Below, in pieces: positions 8,681 to 52,643 of a DNA stretch of 54,850 bases. The notes below the pieces were generated by a model. It was given only the letters and a program-made list of their open reading frames with translations, searched no databases and was not told the DNA's origin. Positions within the stretch are counted from its first letter, which is position 1; the number at the start of each line of letters is the position of its first letter. A program made the translations under genes and the position numbers. Source of the DNA: Candidatus Komeilibacteria bacterium CG11_big_fil_rev_8_21_14_0_20_36_20 (lineage in GTDB: Bacteria; Patescibacteriota; Patescibacteriia; UBA1558; GWA2-36-10); the NCBI GenBank assembly GCA_002787405.1, contig PCWQ01000014.1, positions 1 to 54,850 of the forward strand, given 5' to 3'.

Positions 8681-8754
8681 TCGGGGATCGTCTAATGGTA
8701 GGACACCTGGTTTTGGTCCAGGCAATCGGGGTTCGAGCCCCTGTCCCCGAGCCA
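8681..8754 (+). tRNA. tRNA-Gln(TTG)
   Basis: Acceptor TCGGGGA/TCCCCGA, anticodon arm CCTGG-TTTTGGT-CCAGG, GTTCGA T-loop, encoded CCA. Confidence 0.96.
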
Positions 8755-15879: not shown

Positions 15880-15976
15880 ATACCCCTCTGTCCTGCGCCT
15901 GCCTGCCGGCAGACAGGAACATCTCCCCCTAATTTAGGGGGAGAAAAACCCGGCAAATGCCGGGTAGAGGGGGTAT
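15880..15976. repeat. Palindromic element (ACCCCTC...CTCCCCCT/AGGGGGAG...GGGGTA) with nested CCTGCCTGCCGGCAG repeat
   Basis: Terminal inverted arms; same family as 18684-18765. Confidence 0.75.
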
Positions 15977-44620: not shown

Positions 44621-45097
44621 ATGCCTGATTTAGTAAATATAGAAAAAACACCAATTAGTCCTGAACAGTCAGTAGAATCAGCTGAACAAAAAACTGCTCC
44701 AGAAAAATCGCCTGAACAGTTTACTGAAAAAAAAGCCGAGCAAGATGCGTCAGCCCAATCGGTGGTCTTGCCAGATGATTCAGATTCACAGGATAAAACC
44801 AAAATTTCGACCAGCACTGTTACTTTGCGTAAAGTAGAAAGTATTTTGTCCCGGGACATGGACAAAGTATTTTTGTCAATGGATGCGGCTACTCAACAAA
44901 AATTTAAAATTAAAGGCGAAGAAACAGCCCGTCAAATTACTACCATTTTACAAAAAGGTAAATTTAAAGTTAAACAAATTATTAATTTAATTGTTGGCTG
45001 GCTGCGTATTATTCCGCGAGTTAATAAACATTATATAGAACAGGAAGCAAAAATCAAAGCTGATTTGATAATAAAAATGCATCAAAACAAAAAATAA
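44621..45097 (+). CDS. Hypothetical protein coupled to the TrwB-like ATPase
   Basis: Disordered N-terminus, WLRIIPRVNKHYIEQEAKIK C-terminus; TAATG overlap. Confidence 0.8.
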   Translation: MPDLVNIEKTPISPEQSVESAEQKTAPEKSPEQFTEKKAEQDASAQSVVLPDDSDSQDKTKISTSTVTLRKVESILSRDMDKVFLSMDAATQQKFKIKGEETARQITTILQKGKFKVKQIINLIVGWLRIIPRVNKHYIEQEAKIKADLIIKMHQNKK

Positions 45098-47553
45098 TGT
45101 CTTTAGATCTAACAACTTTAATCATCTTAGCCGGATTTATTTTAGTAATCATTATTGCTATCTGGTTGGTCTTAAAATCTTTCAAGAATAAATCCAATAA
45201 AAATTTAGATTTGGATATTTTATTAATTAAAATTCCCAAATATACCAAACAGGAAAAAGAGGAGCTAAACAAAGAATATATTGTCAGCACTCTTGGTAAA
45301 ATTGAAAATTTCTTTGCTTCTTTAGCTGCTCTAAAAGCGGAAAAAAAAGTAGTCGGCACTCGGACTGATATCTTTTCTTTAGAGTTAGTCTCTCACAATG
45401 GCCAAATCAGTTTTTATGCCGCTGTAGCTCATCGCTTCCGTGATTTTTTTATTCAACAGCTCCAGGCGGTTTACGGAAAGATTTATTTTGAAGAAATTTC
45501 TGATTATAATATTTTTGAAGCCAATAGCCAAATCGCAGGCGGCAGTTTAAGATTAGCTAATGATTTTTCTTTACCGATTAAAACTTATCGGACTTTTGAA
45601 AACGATCCTTTAGAGGGGATTACTAACAGCTTAAGCAAATTAAACGATAATGAATCAGCTGTTGTGCAGTATATTTTTAGATCAGCGCCAAAAAAATGGC
45701 ATAGGCGGGGAAGAAAAATAGCTAGAAATATGTATCAAGGCATGTCTTTTCATGAGGCCCTAAGTAAAGAGGGTGGCGGAGGATTTTTCGGAATTGTCGA
45801 AAAAATAATAAATTTTTCCACTAGTATGTTTTTTACCACCCGTCAGAAAGATGAAGAAAAACTTACAAAGCCAGAAGAAAAAGAGCAATTATCCAGCATG
45901 GAGCAGGAAAGAGCTAAGGGATTAGAAGAAAAGACTTCTAAGCCAGGCATGGACGTTAATATTAGAGTTGTTGTCTCTGCCCCAGATAAAACTAGATCAA
46001 ACGCTATTTTATCTGACATTTTAAACAGCTACAGCCAGTATAATATTTATGAATTTGGTAATAGTTTTAAAGCCCAAATACCTCGTCATCCTGATTCTAT
46101 TATTAATAATTTTATCTACCGAAATTTTATATCTAATCATAATGTTCTTTTAAATGCTGAAGAAATGGTTTCTGTGGTCCATTTGCCGTTACCAACCACT
46201 GAAACTCCTAATATTGACTGGCTGGATGCTGCTAAAGCTCCACCGCCTAATAATATGCCACGCGAAGGTATTATTTTAGGTAAAAATGAGTATCGCAGCA
46301 AAGAAACACTAGTTAGAATAAAACAGGAAGATCGGCGTCGCCATATGTACGTCATTGGTCAAACTGGTGTGGGAAAATCCGTATTCATGGAAAGTTTGCT
46401 TATTCAGGATATTAAAGAAGGACGAGGGGTGTGCGTAGTTGATCCGCACGGTGATTTAGTGGAAAAAATTCTGACTCATGTGCCTAAGGAAAGAGCAGAA
46501 GAGGTTATTCTATTTGATCCGGCTGATATAGAACGACCAATGGGTATGAATATGTTGGAATACGAAAACGGTGAGCAGAAAACTTTTGTTATTAACGAAA
46601 TGATTGCCATTTTTGACAAGCTTTATGATCTTAAAGCCACTGGCGGACCAATGTTTGAACAATATATGAGAAACGCCATGCTCTTGATTATGGATGATAA
46701 AGATTCAGGGGCGACTCTTTTGGAAATTCCCAAAGTACTAGCTGATGAATCATATCGCCGTTATAAATTATCAAAAGTGCAAAATCGTTTTGTTAAAGAT
46801 TTTTGGGAAAAAGAAGCGCAAAAAGCCGGTGGTGAAGCTGCCCTAGCCAATATGGTCCCTTACATCACTAGCAAATTAACTCCTTTTATTTCCAACGACA
46901 CTATTCGTCCAATTATTGCTCAAGAAAAAAGTGCTTTTAATTTTAGAAAAGCCATGGACGAAAACAAAATTATTTTACTCAATTTATCCAAAGGAAAAAT
47001 CGGCGAGATGAACAGCAATTTATTAGGTATGATTGTTATCGGGAAATTGCTTTTTGCTGCCATGAGTCGAGTTAATATCTCTGAAGAACAGCGAAATGAT
47101 TTTTATTTATATATTGATGAGTTCCAAAATTTTATCACCGATACTATTTCTGTTATTTTATCAGAAGCAAGAAAATACAAATTAAATTTAATTTTAGCCC
47201 ATCAATTTATCGCTCAATTGACCAAAAATAATAATACCAGCATCAGAGATGCTATCTTTGGCAATGTCGGCACTATTATTTCATACCGCATTGGTGTGGA
47301 AGATTCCGAAATAATCGCTAAGCAAATGGCCCCAATAGTCTCAGAATATGACTTGATTAATATGCCGAAATATACCTGTTACATTAAATTATTAATTGAC
47401 AATGCTAATCCACCAGCTTTTAATTTTCAGCCAATTTATCCGGAAAAAGGAAATTTTGAACTAGCTCAAGCTATTAAAGAGTTATCGCGCTTGAAATACG
47501 GCCGCGAGCGTACTATGGTGGAAGAGGAGATTAGCCGGAGAACTAATGTCTGA
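45097..47553 (+). CDS. VirD4/TrwB/TraD-like coupling ATPase (HerA-FtsK superfamily)
   Basis: N-terminal TM, DRRRHMYVIGQTGVGKS (Walker A), DPHGD, YIDEFQNF (Walker B), EARKY, AHQ. Confidence 0.9.
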   Translation: MSLDLTTLIILAGFILVIIIAIWLVLKSFKNKSNKNLDLDILLIKIPKYTKQEKEELNKEYIVSTLGKIENFFASLAALKAEKKVVGTRTDIFSLELVSHNGQISFYAAVAHRFRDFFIQQLQAVYGKIYFEEISDYNIFEANSQIAGGSLRLANDFSLPIKTYRTFENDPLEGITNSLSKLNDNESAVVQYIFRSAPKKWHRRGRKIARNMYQGMSFHEALSKEGGGGFFGIVEKIINFSTSMFFTTRQKDEEKLTKPEEKEQLSSMEQERAKGLEEKTSKPGMDVNIRVVVSAPDKTRSNAILSDILNSYSQYNIYEFGNSFKAQIPRHPDSIINNFIYRNFISNHNVLLNAEEMVSVVHLPLPTTETPNIDWLDAAKAPPPNNMPREGIILGKNEYRSKETLVRIKQEDRRRHMYVIGQTGVGKSVFMESLLIQDIKEGRGVCVVDPHGDLVEKILTHVPKERAEEVILFDPADIERPMGMNMLEYENGEQKTFVINEMIAIFDKLYDLKATGGPMFEQYMRNAMLLIMDDKDSGATLLEIPKVLADESYRRYKLSKVQNRFVKDFWEKEAQKAGGEAALANMVPYITSKLTPFISNDTIRPIIAQEKSAFNFRKAMDENKIILLNLSKGKIGEMNSNLLGMIVIGKLLFAAMSRVNISEEQRNDFYLYIDEFQNFITDTISVILSEARKYKLNLILAHQFIAQLTKNNNTSIRDAIFGNVGTIISYRIGVEDSEIIAKQMAPIVSEYDLINMPKYTCYIKLLIDNANPPAFNFQPIYPEKGNFELAQAIKELSRLKYGRERTMVEEEISRRTNV

Positions 47554-48276: not shown

Positions 48277-49773
48277 ATGCCAGAAGTCATTTATCGTAAA
48301 TATAGGCCAAAGACCTTTAAGGAGGTTGTTGGCCAAAAACCAATCAAACTTACTCTGCAAAATGAAATTGTTTCTAAACAAATAGCTCATGCATATTTGT
48401 TTGTTGGTCCGCGTGGGACTGGTAAAACAACTCTAGCCAGATTGTTTGCCCGTTCTTTAAATTGTCTAGATCGCTCAGTTGATCAATCTGAACCTTGTAA
48501 TAAATGCGAAATTTGTCAGCTCATCTTAAACAACCGATCAATGGACATTATTGAGATTGACGCTGCTTCTCATACTGGTGTTGATAATGTAAGAGAAAAT
48601 ATTATTGCTAACGCTCAAATCCCTCCTTTTAATAATAAGGGTTGTAAGGTTTTTGTGATTGATGAAGTGCATATGCTTTCTAAATCCGCCTTTAATGCCC
48701 TGCTAAAAACATTAGAGGAGCCGCCTAAACACGTTATTTTTATTTTAGCGACCACTGAAATTCATAAAGTGCCGGAAACTATTATTTCCCGCTGTCAGAG
48801 GTTTGATTTTAAAAAAATTCCTCAACAGGATATTATCAAAAGATTGACGGAAATTATTGAATGGGAAAAAATTGAAGTACCAGAGCATATCTTAGCTGAG
48901 ATCTCTAGAAAATCAGAGGGTTGTTTAAGAGATGCGGAATCATTGCTTGGTCAGATTATTTCTTTAGACCAAACTAAAATCACTGATGAATTGGCTTCTT
49001 TAGTTCTGCCGCGCAGTAATTGGCAAGAAATCAATAATTTAGTAGAAGGTTTGCGTCTTAATAATTTGGCCACTACTTTAAACCAGATTAATAAATTAGT
49101 GGAAGAGGGGATTGATTTAAAAATTTTTATAGATGACTTAATAGATTATCTGCGGCAAATAATGCTCTATCAAATTATTGGTCCTAGCTTTAATTTAGAT
49201 TTCGCCGATGACATAGTCGAAAATCTTAAAGAACATGCTCAAGAATTTCCTTTAGACGATTTATCGCGACTGTTAAACATTCTCTTGGATAAATTATCAA
49301 TAAAAGAATCAATAATAGATCAGTTGCCTTTAGAACTGGGCTGTGTAGAATTTTTAACAGATAAAAAATTAGACCAAGACTATCAGATCCCCAAAATTGA
49401 TTCATCCGATCTGCCAGAACATCAACCCTCCAATGACGATTTTAAAAAAGTCCAAGATCATTGGTCTTTAATAATCAAAGAAACCAAACCCTTTAATCAT
49501 TCTTTATCGGCTATTCTGCAGACTAGCCATCCTTTATCAATTGATCAGCAAAAATTGATTATTGGTTTAGAATACGGTTTTCATTTGGAGCAACTAGATA
49601 AACCGAAAGTTAAAAATCATTTATCCGGAATTTTAAGTAGAATTTTAGGTCATAAAATAAATGTTGGTTTTCAAGTAGATGAAGATTATAAAAAAAGTCA
49701 TCAGAAATTTAAAGGTGGTCATGAAAAAGAAGTAGAGGAGGCCATTGACACTTTTGGCGGAGAAATAGTATAA
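48277..49773 (+). CDS. dnaX: DNA polymerase III gamma/tau subunit
   Basis: YRKYRP, GPRGTGKT, EIDAAS, IDEVHML, TIISRC. Confidence 0.96.
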   Translation: MPEVIYRKYRPKTFKEVVGQKPIKLTLQNEIVSKQIAHAYLFVGPRGTGKTTLARLFARSLNCLDRSVDQSEPCNKCEICQLILNNRSMDIIEIDAASHTGVDNVRENIIANAQIPPFNNKGCKVFVIDEVHMLSKSAFNALLKTLEEPPKHVIFILATTEIHKVPETIISRCQRFDFKKIPQQDIIKRLTEIIEWEKIEVPEHILAEISRKSEGCLRDAESLLGQIISLDQTKITDELASLVLPRSNWQEINNLVEGLRLNNLATTLNQINKLVEEGIDLKIFIDDLIDYLRQIMLYQIIGPSFNLDFADDIVENLKEHAQEFPLDDLSRLLNILLDKLSIKESIIDQLPLELGCVEFLTDKKLDQDYQIPKIDSSDLPEHQPSNDDFKKVQDHWSLIIKETKPFNHSLSAILQTSHPLSIDQQKLIIGLEYGFHLEQLDKPKVKNHLSGILSRILGHKINVGFQVDEDYKKSHQKFKGGHEKEVEEAIDTFGGEIV

Positions 49774-49792
49774 AGAAGTTTGTTCCAAATAT

Positions 49793-49847
49793 TCGGGGAT
49801 CGCCCGCCTGCAACGCTTCGCGTAGCGATGCGGGCAGGTAGAACACT
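49793..49847 (+). pseudogene. tRNA-Gln 5' fragment 1 interrupted by a palindrome
   Basis: TCGGGGATCG-[CCCGCCTGCA...TGCGGGCAGG]-TAGAACACT. Confidence 0.65.
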
Positions 49848-49848
49848 T

Positions 49849-49914
49849 ATTAAAACTTATATGAAGACTGATTTTGGAAGAACATACTTGAATAAAAGAA
49901 TCAGTAAAACATAA
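49849..49914 (+). pseudogene. GIY-YIG nuclease C-terminal remnant
   Basis: Frame reads IKTYMKTDFGRTYLNKRISKT*, resembling the Y-x-K-T/S-x-x-G-R tail of small GIY-YIG proteins. Confidence 0.45.
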
Positions 49915-49926
49915 TTTATATTTTAT

Positions 49927-49987
49927 TCGGGGATCGTCTAATGGTAGGACACTAGGTTCTCCTGCCTGCCGGCAGGTAAGGGTCCTG
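49927..49987 (+). pseudogene. tRNA-Gln 5' half 2 with a 20-nt palindrome in the anticodon
   Basis: TCGGGGATCGTCTAATGGTAGGACACTAGGTTCT-[CCTGCCTGCCGGCAGGTAAG]-GGTCCTG; no T-arm or 3' acceptor strand. Confidence 0.85.
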
Positions 49988-50015
49988 TCCAAAACTATAA
50001 ATAAGAAGAGTGATT

Positions 50016-50150
50016 ATGAAACATTTTGTTTATATTTTAATCAGTCAAAAAAGATCTAATTGGTCATATGAACGTGAAATTTATTTAAAATCCGGAATAG
50101 GTCGAGAAGAAAAAGACAAAATTATTAAAAAATATTTCGGGATCGTCTAA
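50016..50150 (+). pseudogene. Internally deleted GIY-YIG nuclease (44 aa)
   Basis: MKHFVYILISQKRSNWSY joined directly to EREIYLKSGIGRE; stop codon lies inside the tRNA. Confidence 0.7.
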
Positions 50151-50209
50151 TGGTAGGACATCAGGTTCTGGTCCTGAGAATCTAGGTTCGAGTCCTAGTC
50201 CCGAAGCCA
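50136..50209 (+). tRNA. tRNA-Gln(CTG)
   Basis: Acceptor TTCGGGA/TCCCGAA, anticodon arm TCAGG-TTCTGGT-CCTGA, GTTCGA, CCA. Confidence 0.96.
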
Positions 50210-50244
50210 AAACAAAAAACGAAAATTATTAATATAAATAAATT

Positions 50245-50736
50245 ATGAAAAATTTTAATCGAGGTAATAGATTTAATGATAGAAGAGGAGGAGGCGATTT
50301 TGCTGGAAGAGATCAAAAACGTGGTTTTAATCGAGGGGGCGGTAGACCAGTTATGCATCAAGCTATTTGTGACGCTTGCAAACAAAATTGTGAGGTGCCA
50401 TTTAAACCAAGTGGTGATAAACCAATATTTTGTAATACTTGTTTTTCCAAACAAGGTGGTGGTGCTTCCAGATCACATAGATTTAACAGTGATAGAAGAG
50501 AAAGCCAAAGACCTCGTTTTGAAGATAGAGGTGGTAGCCAGTCAAATCAAGATTCTCAAGAAATCCTAAAAGGTATTAAGACTTTAAATTATAAACTTGA
50601 TGAGCTGATAAAAGCATTGGGTTCTAAAGCTCCAGCCAAAGGTACGGAAAAGACTAAAGAAGTGAAAACTACTTCTAAAAAGAAAGTAGCAAAGAAAAAA
50701 ACTGTCAAAAAATCTGCCAAAAATAAAAAGAAATAG
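50245..50736 (+). CDS. CxxC-x17-CxxC zinc-ribbon protein with RG-rich N-terminus and Lys-rich tail
   Basis: MHQAICDACKQNCEVPFKPSGDKPIFCNTCF. Confidence 0.88.
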   Translation: MKNFNRGNRFNDRRGGGDFAGRDQKRGFNRGGGRPVMHQAICDACKQNCEVPFKPSGDKPIFCNTCFSKQGGGASRSHRFNSDRRESQRPRFEDRGGSQSNQDSQEILKGIKTLNYKLDELIKALGSKAPAKGTEKTKEVKTTSKKKVAKKKTVKKSAKNKKK

Positions 50737-50755
50737 TTTTTTGATTATAAAAACA

Positions 50756-50790
50756 AAAAGCCGTTAATTAAATAATTAAACGGTTTTTTG
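50756..50790 (+). terminator. Intrinsic terminator
   Basis: AAAAAGCCGTT...AACGGTTTTTT. Confidence 0.7.
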
Positions 50791-50852
50791 ATTAAAATGA
50801 TCTCACTACTACCCCTTGCTAAAAATTAATATTTTTAGTAGTATTAGAGCTT

Positions 50853-52643
50853 ATGGAGATTAGAAACATTGCCATCATTGCTCACGTTGACCATGGTAAA
50901 ACAGCTTTAACTGACGCCATACTTAAACAAACCGGTATGGTTTCGGATGAAAATGCCACTATGGATTCAAACGCTTTGGAAAAAGAGCGGGGTATTACGA
51001 TTTATTCAAAAAATGCTTCCGTATTTTATAAAGACACTAAGATTAACATTGTTGATACTCCTGGACATGCAGATTTTGGTTCAGAAGTTGAAAGAGTCTT
51101 GCGCTCCATTGATAGTGTCTTGTTAGTAGTTGACGCTCAAGAAGGACCAATGCCGCAAACCAGATTTGTTTTAAAAAAATCTTTAGAATTGGGCCACAAA
51201 CCAATCTTAGTCCTAAATAAAATTGATAAAACAGCTGCTGATCCTCATCGAGCTCACGAGCAAGTTCTGGAATTATTTATGGATCTCGGAGCAACTGATG
51301 AACAATTGGATTTTACAACCATCTATAGTATTGCTAAAAATGGTATTGCTAAACGATATTTAACTGATGAATCATTAGATATAACACCATTGCTAGATAT
51401 GATTCTAGAAAAAGTTGACCCCGCGCAATCACAAGTTGATTTACCTTTACGATTTCAATCATTTAATCTTGGCTATGACAATTTTTTGGGTCGTTTAGCA
51501 ATCGGTCGAGTTTATGAAGGAACAATTTCTATTAAAGATAATTTAATTCTCAAAAAAACTAATGGCCAGAATATTAAAGGCAAGGCCACGAAATTATTTA
51601 CTTTTCATGGTTTAGAAAGAAAAGAAATAGACCAAGCTATCGCTGGTGATATTGTTATGATTGCTGGTTTTCCAGACATTGATATTGGTGAGACTATTTG
51701 TGTCTCTCTTGAGCAGCCACCTTTACCAGCTATTATGGTAGATGAACCAACTATTTCTTTAAATTTTTTAGTAAATAATTCTCCCTTTGCTGGTCGCGAA
51801 GGTAAATATGTAACTAACAAACAACTTAAAGAAAGACTAGAAAAAGAATTAGAAATCAATGTTGGAATGAAGATTGATTTTTCCAGCGATACTTTCAAAG
51901 TATATAGCAGAGGAGAGTTACATGTTGCTATATTGATTGAAACTATGCGTCGGGAGGGTTATGAACTACAAGTATCTCAACCACAAGTCATTATAGAAGA
52001 AAGAGAGGGTAAAAAATTTGAACCCTTTGAAGAAGTAACTATTGATGTTCCAGAAGTTAGTTCTGGTATTGTTATGGAAAAAATGGGCAAACGAAAAGGA
52101 GTTGTTACTGCTATGAAAAACGACAACGGTCAAATGCGTCTCATATTTGAAATACCAACTAGAGGTCTGCTTGGTTATCGTGGTGAATTTACTATCGATA
52201 CCCGTGGCGAAGGTATTTTATGTTCTCGGGTGCTTGATTATCGTCCTTATACTGGCACCATAAAAAAACGCGATGTTGGCTCTATGATTTCAATGGCTAC
52301 TGGCAAAGCTTTAGGATTTTCTTTATTCAATCTTCAAGACCGCGGCACACTCTATATTGGACCAAACATAGAAGTCTATGAGGGTATGGTTATCGGTAAC
52401 ACTGCCAAAGGATTTGATATGATGGTCAACCCCATTAAGGGTAAACAACTAAGCAATATGCGTAGCTCAGGGGCTGATGAGGCTATTACTTTGACTCCAC
52501 CAAATATCTTAACCATTGAAAAAGGATTAGAGATTATTTCTGAAGATGAATACTTGGAAGTAACCCCAAAATCCATTCGTTTACGTAAACAAGGTTTGAC
52601 TGAAAATGAACGACGTAAATCTCAGCGTCAGCCAGCAAAGTAA
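50853..52643 (+). CDS. typA: Translational GTPase TypA/BipA
   Basis: IRNIAIIAHVDHGKT, RGELH, EVTPKSIRLRK. Confidence 0.97.
   Translation: MEIRNIAIIAHVDHGKTALTDAILKQTGMVSDENATMDSNALEKERGITIYSKNASVFYKDTKINIVDTPGHADFGSEVERVLRSIDSVLLVVDAQEGPMPQTRFVLKKSLELGHKPILVLNKIDKTAADPHRAHEQVLELFMDLGATDEQLDFTTIYSIAKNGIAKRYLTDESLDITPLLDMILEKVDPAQSQVDLPLRFQSFNLGYDNFLGRLAIGRVYEGTISIKDNLILKKTNGQNIKGKATKLFTFHGLERKEIDQAIAGDIVMIAGFPDIDIGETICVSLEQPPLPAIMVDEPTISLNFLVNNSPFAGREGKYVTNKQLKERLEKELEINVGMKIDFSSDTFKVYSRGELHVAILIETMRREGYELQVSQPQVIIEEREGKKFEPFEEVTIDVPEVSSGIVMEKMGKRKGVVTAMKNDNGQMRLIFEIPTRGLLGYRGEFTIDTRGEGILCSRVLDYRPYTGTIKKRDVGSMISMATGKALGFSLFNLQDRGTLYIGPNIEVYEGMVIGNTAKGFDMMVNPIKGKQLSNMRSSGADEAITLTPPNILTIEKGLEIISEDEYLEVTPKSIRLRKQGLTENERRKSQRQPAK

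Follow-up and report, generated by a model that had tools for sequence, protein, structure and literature searches.

The 362 nt that separate the stop codon of dnaX from the live tRNA-Gln(CTG) gene of Candidatus Komeilibacteria bacterium CG11_big_fil_rev_8_21_14_0_20_36_20 are filled by pieces of tRNA-Gln genes, GC-rich palindromes and the remnants of two small GIY-YIG nuclease genes. They lie in contig PCWQ01000014.1 (C7 in our numbering; G, C and L numbers designate genomes, contigs and loci, respectively), the whole 54,850 nt stretch of which was analysed and is called the window here; the genome is 978 kb long, with 35 % G+C, in 23 contigs. We consider it probable that this arrangement is what remains of two or more successive, homing-type insertions of a cassette made up of a nuclease gene and a tRNA gene into the tRNA-Gln(CTG) gene behind dnaX, followed by decay. 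The nuclease gene is probably selfish, and its intact copies in other genomes suggest a mobile element, little known so far, that has tRNA genes as its target. The original prediction, made from the letters of the window, had described a decayed tandem array in which 5′ halves of tRNA-Gln alternate with GIY-YIG remnants, and every feature that it listed (the promoter-like motif, a 5′ fragment, a 5′ half, the open reading frames (ORFs) and the live tRNA) is present in the sequence.

The dead tRNA pieces are more complex than halves. Downstream of the first piece of each copy (A1 and B1 in Table 1) lie a GC-rich palindrome and then a short continuation of the same tRNA (A2 and B2), and the supposed halves, which do exist, are therefore interrupted and truncated tRNA copies, the palindromes having been left out of the original description. 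Piece A1 has the start sequence of the dnaX-linked tRNA-Gln of relatives, and piece A2 ends where the cassette joins, at tRNA nt 26–28.

The origin of the two intervening ORFs (ORF-A and ORF-B) had to be traced through intact relatives. A failure of the fragments to hit the GIY-YIG family had been named in advance as grounds for abandoning the prediction, and, taken literally, a Pfam search with 50010–50150 and 49780–49914 returned no family at E≤10, PF01541 included. Of the 120 homologues listed for the G050 ORF, the 107 with a length of 75–95 aa were made into a profile, which was run over the 3736 six-frame segments of the window, and the ORF-A segment (49774–49911) ranked first (E 0.0018, profile positions 63–79) and the ORF-B segment (50001–50147) second (E 0.26). 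The tail of ORF-A aligned locally with the 82 aa ORF of G050 at a score of 63, the maximum of 300 shuffles being 44, and the DNA of unit A shares 78 % identity with the end of the G050 ORF and the tRNA start. A three-way global DNA alignment of unit A was poor at the 5′ end, and the 3′ half alone was used. ORF-B matched both ends of the intact 86 aa ORF of G066, a relative from another family within the order (BLASTP, 5e-13), with one gap of 42–44 residues, which at the DNA level is a single clean in-frame gap of 129 nt with its junction at about 50070/50071. Local alignments of the halves of ORF-B with 32 GIY-YIG ORFs were borderline relative to shuffles, and for ORF-B the argument depends on the match to G066. 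The stretch 49992–50040 also matches the start of an intact GIY-YIG gene in the same genome (C6:1704–1754; 85 %, E 1.3e-8). Since the intact ORFs of G066, G023 and G050 match PF01541 at 1.6e-15, 3.7e-12 and 7.8e-18, respectively, both remnants are, via these relatives, clearly homologous to PF01541 proteins, and the GIY-YIG identification given by the original prediction holds on these grounds. Those relatives of the small GIY-YIG proteins that carry a name come from Patescibacteria.

The catalytic core of GIY-YIG enzymes includes the second Tyr motif, an Arg and a Glu, and the core is gone from both units. In ORF-B 43 codons are missing, those that would join the N-terminal strand to the last helix, and ORF-A consists of the last 17–19 codons only. 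The earlier reading of ORF-B as a 44 aa product with its core deleted is borne out by the G066 alignment, its TAA stop lies inside the D arm of the live tRNA as had been stated, and inactivation by internal deletion is seen in both units. By sequence comparison ORF-A and ORF-B come from two separate lineages of small GIY-YIG genes, and for each window unit the nearest relative is found in another genus or family, so that a simple tandem duplication is excluded. Because the remnants are of two lineages, the locus is not a tandem array of a single unit, and what is left of the stacked array first proposed is two units in succession.

The same locus was compared in 28 relatives that include the 3′ end of dnaX. 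It is empty in 19, the tRNA-Gln gene lying 0–90 nt past the dnaX stop with nothing between and starting with TCGGGG(A/G) in 17 and TCGGAGA in two. Four relatives carry a unit or its remnants (G023 intact; G003, G025 and G034 decayed), and in five another ORF lies in between, the tRNA is missing or the contig is cut. The order in G023 is a 5′ piece of the resident tRNA, its D loop holding a palindrome, followed by an intact 87 aa ORF, a complete tRNA-Gln(CTG) and then the rest of the resident tRNA, riddled with palindromes. The three decayed loci retain dead pieces without an ORF, and G003 mirrors the two-piece layout of the window. An intact unit in G069 follows a post-dnaX spacer shared with its congeners G036 and G034, and although the contig ends before dnaX, this shared sequence suggests that the unit probably sits at the dnaX locus. 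Genus g4 alone thus has empty (G036), occupied (G069) and decayed (G034, G003) examples. These counts, with G069 added, amount to a presence/absence polymorphism at one conserved site, where the number of units ranges from 0 to 2. Both such variation in unit number and intact small GIY-YIG ORFs abutting or overlapping the 5′ end of tRNA-Gln had been expected to occur in relatives, and the latter were found in G023 (at dnaX), G066, G050, G081 and G069.

The TCGGGGA-type tRNA-Gln genes of loci L035–L041 were missed by ARAGORN, so BLAST and Rfam were used for them. In these seven loci BLAST matches tRNA-Gln at 86–91 % (six matches span query nt 1–74 and that in L039 spans nt 1–70); the genes are of the TCGGGGA type with a U1–A72 pair, and the tRNA counts of these genomes may be too low. 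GC-rich elements of ~70–90 nt follow the tRNA-Gln in L035, L039 and L040 and end in a repeat of the last ~10 tRNA nt (CCCCGAGCCA). In G011 (L040) such an element is present twice in a row, resembling target duplications at the tRNA 3′ end.

The acceptor sequences suggest which tRNA came last. Both dead pieces start with TCGGGGA, the usual acceptor start at the dnaX locus. The likeness to the tRNA-Gln(TTG) gene at 8681 that had been noted earlier is exact over the first 26 nt of B1 (100 % identity), and 31 nt of B1 are 93.5 % identical to the CTG tRNA. The live tRNA, the only CTG isoacceptor of tRNA-Gln found in the genome, starts with TTCGGGA and has a matching 3′ strand. Its first 15 nt (TTCGGGATCGTCTAA) were found in two of the 86 genomes of the order, that of the window and G023, and in both this copy stands behind a GIY-YIG unit at dnaX. 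As the dead pieces are of the usual type and the live allele is found in these two genomes behind GIY-YIG units, the live gene is taken to be the incoming one. Most simply, to judge from these sequences, the live tRNA would be a foreign allele and the dead pieces the remains of residents, and we no longer treat the live tRNA as the original gene.

Comparison with the relatives shows two independent insertions. The first brought a c-type gene, as in G050 and G023, joined to the resident tRNA at nt 26–28, and the second a G066-type gene that entered the tRNA brought by the first. In each event the 5′ part of the older tRNA was displaced upstream as a dead piece with a complete tRNA left downstream, and later both nuclease genes lost their cores by internal deletion. 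As to mechanism, the nuclease may cut or nick an unoccupied tRNA gene, and the break would be repaired by copying the occupied allele, anchored in conserved tRNA sequence, in a manner that would resemble homing with co-conversion by analogy with the fungal mitochondrial endonuclease ORFs known as mORFs. The ORF could be transcribed from the promoter of the displaced tRNA, and the nuclease gene would decay after fixation. The descriptive part of this account is secure and the mechanism unproven; we place the feature with the free-standing homing endonucleases or mORFs.

PF01541 has 286 matches in 57 of 61 related genomes, and single-domain GIY-YIG genes akin to those of the window are strongly linked to tRNA genes throughout the order. 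Linkage was counted at the best 30 PF01541 loci, one per genome, with the ORFs in three groups and the tRNAs found by Rfam, and a same-strand tRNA lies within ~330 nt at 18 of the 30. The b-type genes lie between co-oriented tRNAs in 14 of 15 cases, the c-type genes adjoin tRNAs in all four, and for the a-type genes (94–105 aa) a tRNA was found within 1.5 kb in none of 11. The best 30 matches to the G066 ORF were treated likewise: at 15 of these loci a tRNA on the same strand starts −37 to +114 nt from the ORF end, at ten there is a tRNA upstream only (25–425 nt away), and at five there is none. By our estimate, from ~40 tRNAs in 0.98 Mb, the chance expectation is <2 %. An exact copy of 9–16 nt of the tRNA start lies upstream of the ORF at eight of the 15 tRNA-linked G066-type loci and also in G050 (L076) and G023 (L019). 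Where the ORF is downstream of the tRNA, it is followed by a copy of the tRNA 3′ end in L119, L122 and L130 (13–16 nt exact), with weaker copies in L077 (9 nt exact) and L004 (seen by eye, with mismatches). Units linked to tRNA-Gln were found in G023, G069, G050, G081, G066, G043, G001 and G067, and the ORF–tRNA junction is at tRNA nt 26–28 in all five c-type tRNA-Gln units (window unit A, G050, G023, G069 and G081). An intact cassette is a gene of ~250 nt for a single-domain GIY-YIG protein of 80–91 aa, directly 5′ of a same-strand tRNA, with the stop codon in, or within a few bases of, the first 14 nt of that tRNA.

Other loci of the same genome have related features. At C11:220306–220566 (minus strand; L003) tRNA-Met and tRNA-Asn flank a b-type GIY-YIG gene, the TAG stop of which is inside the 5′ end of tRNA-Asn; the C-terminal ending of its product recurs in two other genera (L062, L078), and this gene may be stably resident and not mobile. 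C13:39990–40450 (minus strand; L004) holds, in this order, a 5′ piece of tRNA-Ser with two GC hairpins, the live tRNA-Ser(TGA), a c-type GIY-YIG gene that contains a TGA in frame, and the 3′ end of tRNA-Ser once more as a diverged copy. A GIY-YIG match at C19:21420–21638 (plus strand; L002) has one in-frame TAG near its start and is a pseudogene or has a later start. Further partial tRNA copies stand just upstream of live tRNAs at C4:11746–11830, C16:55929–55978, C16:84527–84548 and C11 ~221700–221830 (minus strand). They are a tRNA-Gly look-alike (50 nt, 98 %) with its T arm replaced by a small GC hairpin and the anticodon GCT, a 50 nt piece of tRNA-Ile, a 22 nt piece of tRNA-Val followed by a palindrome, and a tRNA-Pro-like gene with a GC-rich insert, a hairpin replacing its T arm.

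The linkage bears on an explanation in which the nuclease is a passenger. A foreign ORF and tRNA would have arrived by natural transformation and been fitted in by tRNA-anchored recombination and an illegitimate joint, or the structure would have arisen by unequal crossing-over, or the nuclease would be a resident gene of the tRNA operon with a cellular function. All that the structure requires is tRNA homology and one illegitimate joint, the proteins have no recognisable DNA-binding domain, and a type IV coupling-protein-like gene lies nearby. However, the junction at nt 26–28 recurs in five of five c-type tRNA-Gln units, in different genera and at different loci, and the supposed passenger is a nuclease gene every time. 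The array of G066, which repeats the ORF end and tRNA nt 1–35 almost exactly, does look like a local duplication, but the window's two units are of different lineage; and while the b-type genes show synteny across genera, with the same tRNAs on either side, the a-type genes of the same genomes have no tRNA link (0 of 11). We judge this explanation unlikely.

The GC-rich palindromes are integral to the structure. A palindromic insert is present in all the displaced tRNA pieces that were inspected, the two in the window and one in each of ten relatives' loci (L019, L076, L085, L102, L112, L113, L115, L117, L123 and L125), placed at loop positions of the tRNA, namely after nt 10–18, after nt 35 or in the T loop. 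A fold of 49793–49852, which spans insert A, reached −25 kcal/mol (z −2.62), and that of 49927–49992 was no better than shuffles (z −0.56). A relative of insert A occupies the matching tRNA position in G034, and the insert is found inverted (26 of 26 nt) in the D loop of the dead fragment of G050. In four metagenome runs it is common to many unrelated contigs, with a summed depth of 33–519 against 2–5 beside it, and shows loose ends at both borders. Palindrome B is identical, and at the identical tRNA position, in G066 and has at least nine further sites in the genome to which the window belongs, mostly away from tRNAs. With many copies in unrelated contexts, as in repetitive extragenic palindromes or miniature inverted-repeat transposable elements, the palindromes are dispersed repeats. 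A second palindrome of the CCTGCC..GGCAGG type lies at 15898–15917 beside a CCCCCTAATTTAGGGGGAG repeat, and this pair recurs at three other sites of the genome.

The palindromes might themselves be the mobile agents, small and non-autonomous, inserting at tRNA loops, with the GIY-YIG protein as their hairpin- or cruciform-selective nuclease and the dead pieces and duplications as by-products of repair. Their presence in every displaced piece inspected would be expected if so, as would the occurrence of one family in both orientations and within pieces of more than one tRNA, and E. coli YhbQ has been placed with the structure-selective nuclease Slx1 in the sections of PMC7017083 that treat this family. 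The abundance of the palindromes, at nine or more genome sites for B and in many unrelated contigs for A, cuts both ways, in that most copies of palindrome B adjoin neither a GIY-YIG gene nor a tRNA. From locus to locus the palindromes vary in sequence and position whereas the ORF–tRNA junction is constant, and there are units without a palindrome-bearing fragment, 7 of the 15 G066-type loci having no detectable 5′ piece. We regard this explanation as quite unlikely. A bolder combination, which we offer as speculation and think unlikely, is that GIY-YIG gene, tRNA gene and GC palindromes form an undescribed minimal bacterial element that replaces tRNA genes: it would supply its own tRNA and disable the resident by truncation and a palindrome in a loop, creating a dependence of the host akin to addiction or drive, and its nuclease, which has no DNA-binding domain, would target the structure of tRNA-gene DNA rather than its sequence.

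tRNA genes are common attachment sites of integrative elements, and partial tRNA repeats are their hallmark, so that the locus could in principle be the trace of an island or prophage of the integrase type for which tRNA-Gln served as attachment site and which was later almost wholly deleted. The repeats here are upstream 5′ parts and not 3′ ends, the two units measure just 134 and 209 nt, and their intact relatives consist of one ORF of 80–91 aa and nothing else. Pfam found no recombinase or integrase among all ORFs of ≥120 aa at 37.7–54.2 kb, in keeping with the integrase-free unit first proposed. We therefore rejected this reading, which we hold to be extremely improbable. A group I intron with a GIY-YIG ORF was likewise rejected, as there is no Intron_gpI match at E≤10 in 49000–51000 and the downstream tRNA is complete and not a 3′ half. 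In a relative, a group I intron was recorded by Rfam (L115:2219–2442, on G003:C5; 81.2 bits) downstream of a tRNA cluster that holds two GIY-YIG genes.

Several observations weigh against successive homing-type insertions. PF01541 itself misses both window fragments, and the C-terminal part of ORF-B alone is borderline (E 0.26; local score 42, with a 95th percentile of 40 for shuffles). The intact ORFs (82–87 aa) are covered by PF01541 from residue 1–2 to residue 69–77 and have no DNA-recognition module, and the nearest proteins of solved structure are UPF0213 proteins, single-domain and uncharacterised (1zg2, E 0.0018; 1ywl, E 0.013). As the b-type genes keep their place between the same tRNAs across genera, some of the GIY-YIG genes linked to tRNAs may have settled stably and serve a function in the cell, and the palindromes could be the active partner. 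As for the alleles, TGCCGGA stands behind the remnants in G003 and G025, yet also at the apparently empty locus of G004, so allele differences can be ordinary variation; and in G050, G066, G069 and G081 the live tRNA and the dead piece have the same 5′ sequence, so that the occupied allele has no visible immunity. Finally, and weakly since only contigs are concerned, four metagenome runs show the full array alone for this organism, and no contig from them joins dnaX directly to the live tRNA.

Matches were found in 24 DNA sequencing runs, all from groundwater or aquifer metagenomes, with no RNA runs listed, and in the contigs of the four runs mentioned above the array is unchanged, one contig of 605 nt spanning 49651–50255 with no differences. 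The sole joint reported in these contigs, from 49951 to 50178 with 17 other letters between, fits the tRNA-Gln of another organism. The features of the locus are collected in Table 1. Rfam (E≤10, 49000–51000) recognised the live tRNA as its sole match, with none for the dead pieces, an intron or a riboswitch. The TTGACA-18-TATAAA motif at the end of dnaX, which the original prediction read as a promoter, is there to the eye, and the layout recurs in L019, L035 and L036. It is not among the six promoter-like sites (3.5±2.1 expected) of a consensus scan because its second hexamer ends in A and the scan rule needs T at position 6; a consensus scan for terminators found none. Two genes upstream of dnaX, an ORF of 818 aa (45097–47553, plus strand) resembles type IV coupling proteins (TrwB_AAD_bind, 4e-10; T4SS-DNA_transf, 1.4e-7).

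Table 1. Features of the dnaX–tRNA-Gln(CTG) locus in window coordinates
Feature	Position	Strand	Basis
dnaX	48277–49773	+	Pfam DNA_pol3_delta2, 7.5e-41
Promoter-like TTGACA-18 nt-TATAAA, in the last codons and stop of dnaX	49745–49774	+	Read by eye
ORF-A open frame	49780–49914	+	ORF list
Dead piece A1, TCGGGGATCG, nt 1–10 of TCGGGGA-type (resident) tRNA-Gln	49793–49802	+	Repeat family D2
Insert A, a GC-rich palindrome of 36 nt within the D arm of dead piece A	49803–49838	.	Fold; comparison with relatives
Dead piece A2, remnant of D-arm 3′ side, ~tRNA nt 19–27	49839–49846	+	Read against GGTAGGACA of intact tRNAs
ORF-A remnant, last 17–19 codons and stop of a c-type GIY-YIG gene	49855–49914	+	Profile of 107 relatives
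Dead piece B1, nt 1–35 of TCGGGGA-type tRNA-Gln, through the second anticodon base	49927–49960	+	Repeat D1
GC-rich palindrome B, CCTGCCTGCCGGCAGG + 4 nt, in the anticodon loop of dead piece B	49961–49980	.	Comparison with G066
Dead piece B2, GGTCCTG, tRNA nt 36–42	49981–49987	+	Repeat D9; alignment with G066 and live tRNA
Conserved leader of GIY-YIG gene	49992–50015	+	Matches gene starts in several relatives
ORF-B, 44 codons, GIY-YIG gene with 129 nt in-frame deletion	50016–50150 (open frame from 50010)	+	G066 comparison
Live tRNA-Gln(CTG), acceptor allele TTCGGGA/TCCCGAA	50136–50209	+	ARAGORN; Rfam tRNA, 59.3 bits

If the preferred reading, of successive homing-type cassette insertions, is correct, the tRNA genes of ultra-small groundwater Patescibacteria, members of the candidate phyla radiation (CPR), would be a regular target of very small endonuclease cassettes that exchange tRNA alleles among lineages, with stacked scars as the result, providing a route for horizontal tRNA gene replacement. 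It would account for the many genes annotated as 'GIY-YIG nuclease family protein', and for odd tRNA-like fragments, in CPR genomes, and the nucleases, at 80–90 aa, might have an unusual mode of target recognition. Programs that look for tRNAs or ORFs in these genomes are also misled by the scars. The cassettes would be a chromosomal, tRNA-directed counterpart of the fungal mORFs and of the Seg genes of T4-like phages.

Of the systems with which the locus can be compared, integrase-type islands and prophages share with it a tRNA gene as target and a partial tRNA copy as scar; window-type units differ in having no recombinase, a length of 134–350 nt, one ORF and mostly 5′ repeats. In T4-like phages the GIY-YIG gene of SegB reportedly lies at a tRNA gene cluster. 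The Seg family resembles the window units in that a GIY-YIG gene stands between or beside tRNA genes without an intron or integrase, and it spreads by a break and co-conversion of flanking markers. The Seg proteins are ~200 aa or more in length, include DNA-binding regions, act between co-infecting phage genomes and are not known to leave stacked partial tRNA copies. Characterised GIY-YIG homing enzymes, I-TevI and the Seg proteins among them, carry a separate DNA-binding domain, and the NCBIfam model for group I intron endonucleases gave only sub-threshold matches (20.6 bits, with a cut-off of 56). In size and in their single domain the cassette ORFs are like the UPF0213/YhbQ/Slx1-like (URI) proteins, YhbQ presumably belonging under the UPF0213 name that these nearest relatives of solved structure bear, and the literature searched holds nothing on mobility or tRNA linkage of these proteins. 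Slx1, in whose family E. coli YhbQ is placed, carries an additional zinc finger and needs Slx4, according to the same sections of PMC7017083.

Within the CPR, GIY-YIG ORFs have been described in rRNA genes, in insertions other than group I or group II introns, and were judged to be sparse and probably not spreading by homing (PMC11270868). These share with the window the radiation and a structural RNA as target; that paper deals with rRNA genes only, and the word tRNA is absent from its text. The literature searched, which took in no supplementary files, contains no description of tRNA-linked GIY-YIG cassettes in bacteria. A documented parallel is found in fungal mitochondria, where, as set out in the sections of PMC3630166 on these elements, mORFs (in atp6 of Allomyces macrogynus and in atp6, atp9, cox2 and nad3 of Glomus) insert together with a foreign copy of the end of the target gene, leave the native gene end as a displaced duplicate from which the inserted part differs, and erode later. 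Like the window units, they are free-standing endonuclease ORFs (LAGLIDADG, or GIY-YIG in atp9) in a conserved gene (PMC3630166). They differ in their organellar protein-gene targets, their duplicated 3′ end and their larger enzymes (PMC3630166), whereas the window-type units target bacterial chromosomal tRNA genes, duplicate the 5′ end (or, at other loci, the 3′ end), encode a bare catalytic domain of 80–91 aa and leave a displaced piece that carries GC palindromes.

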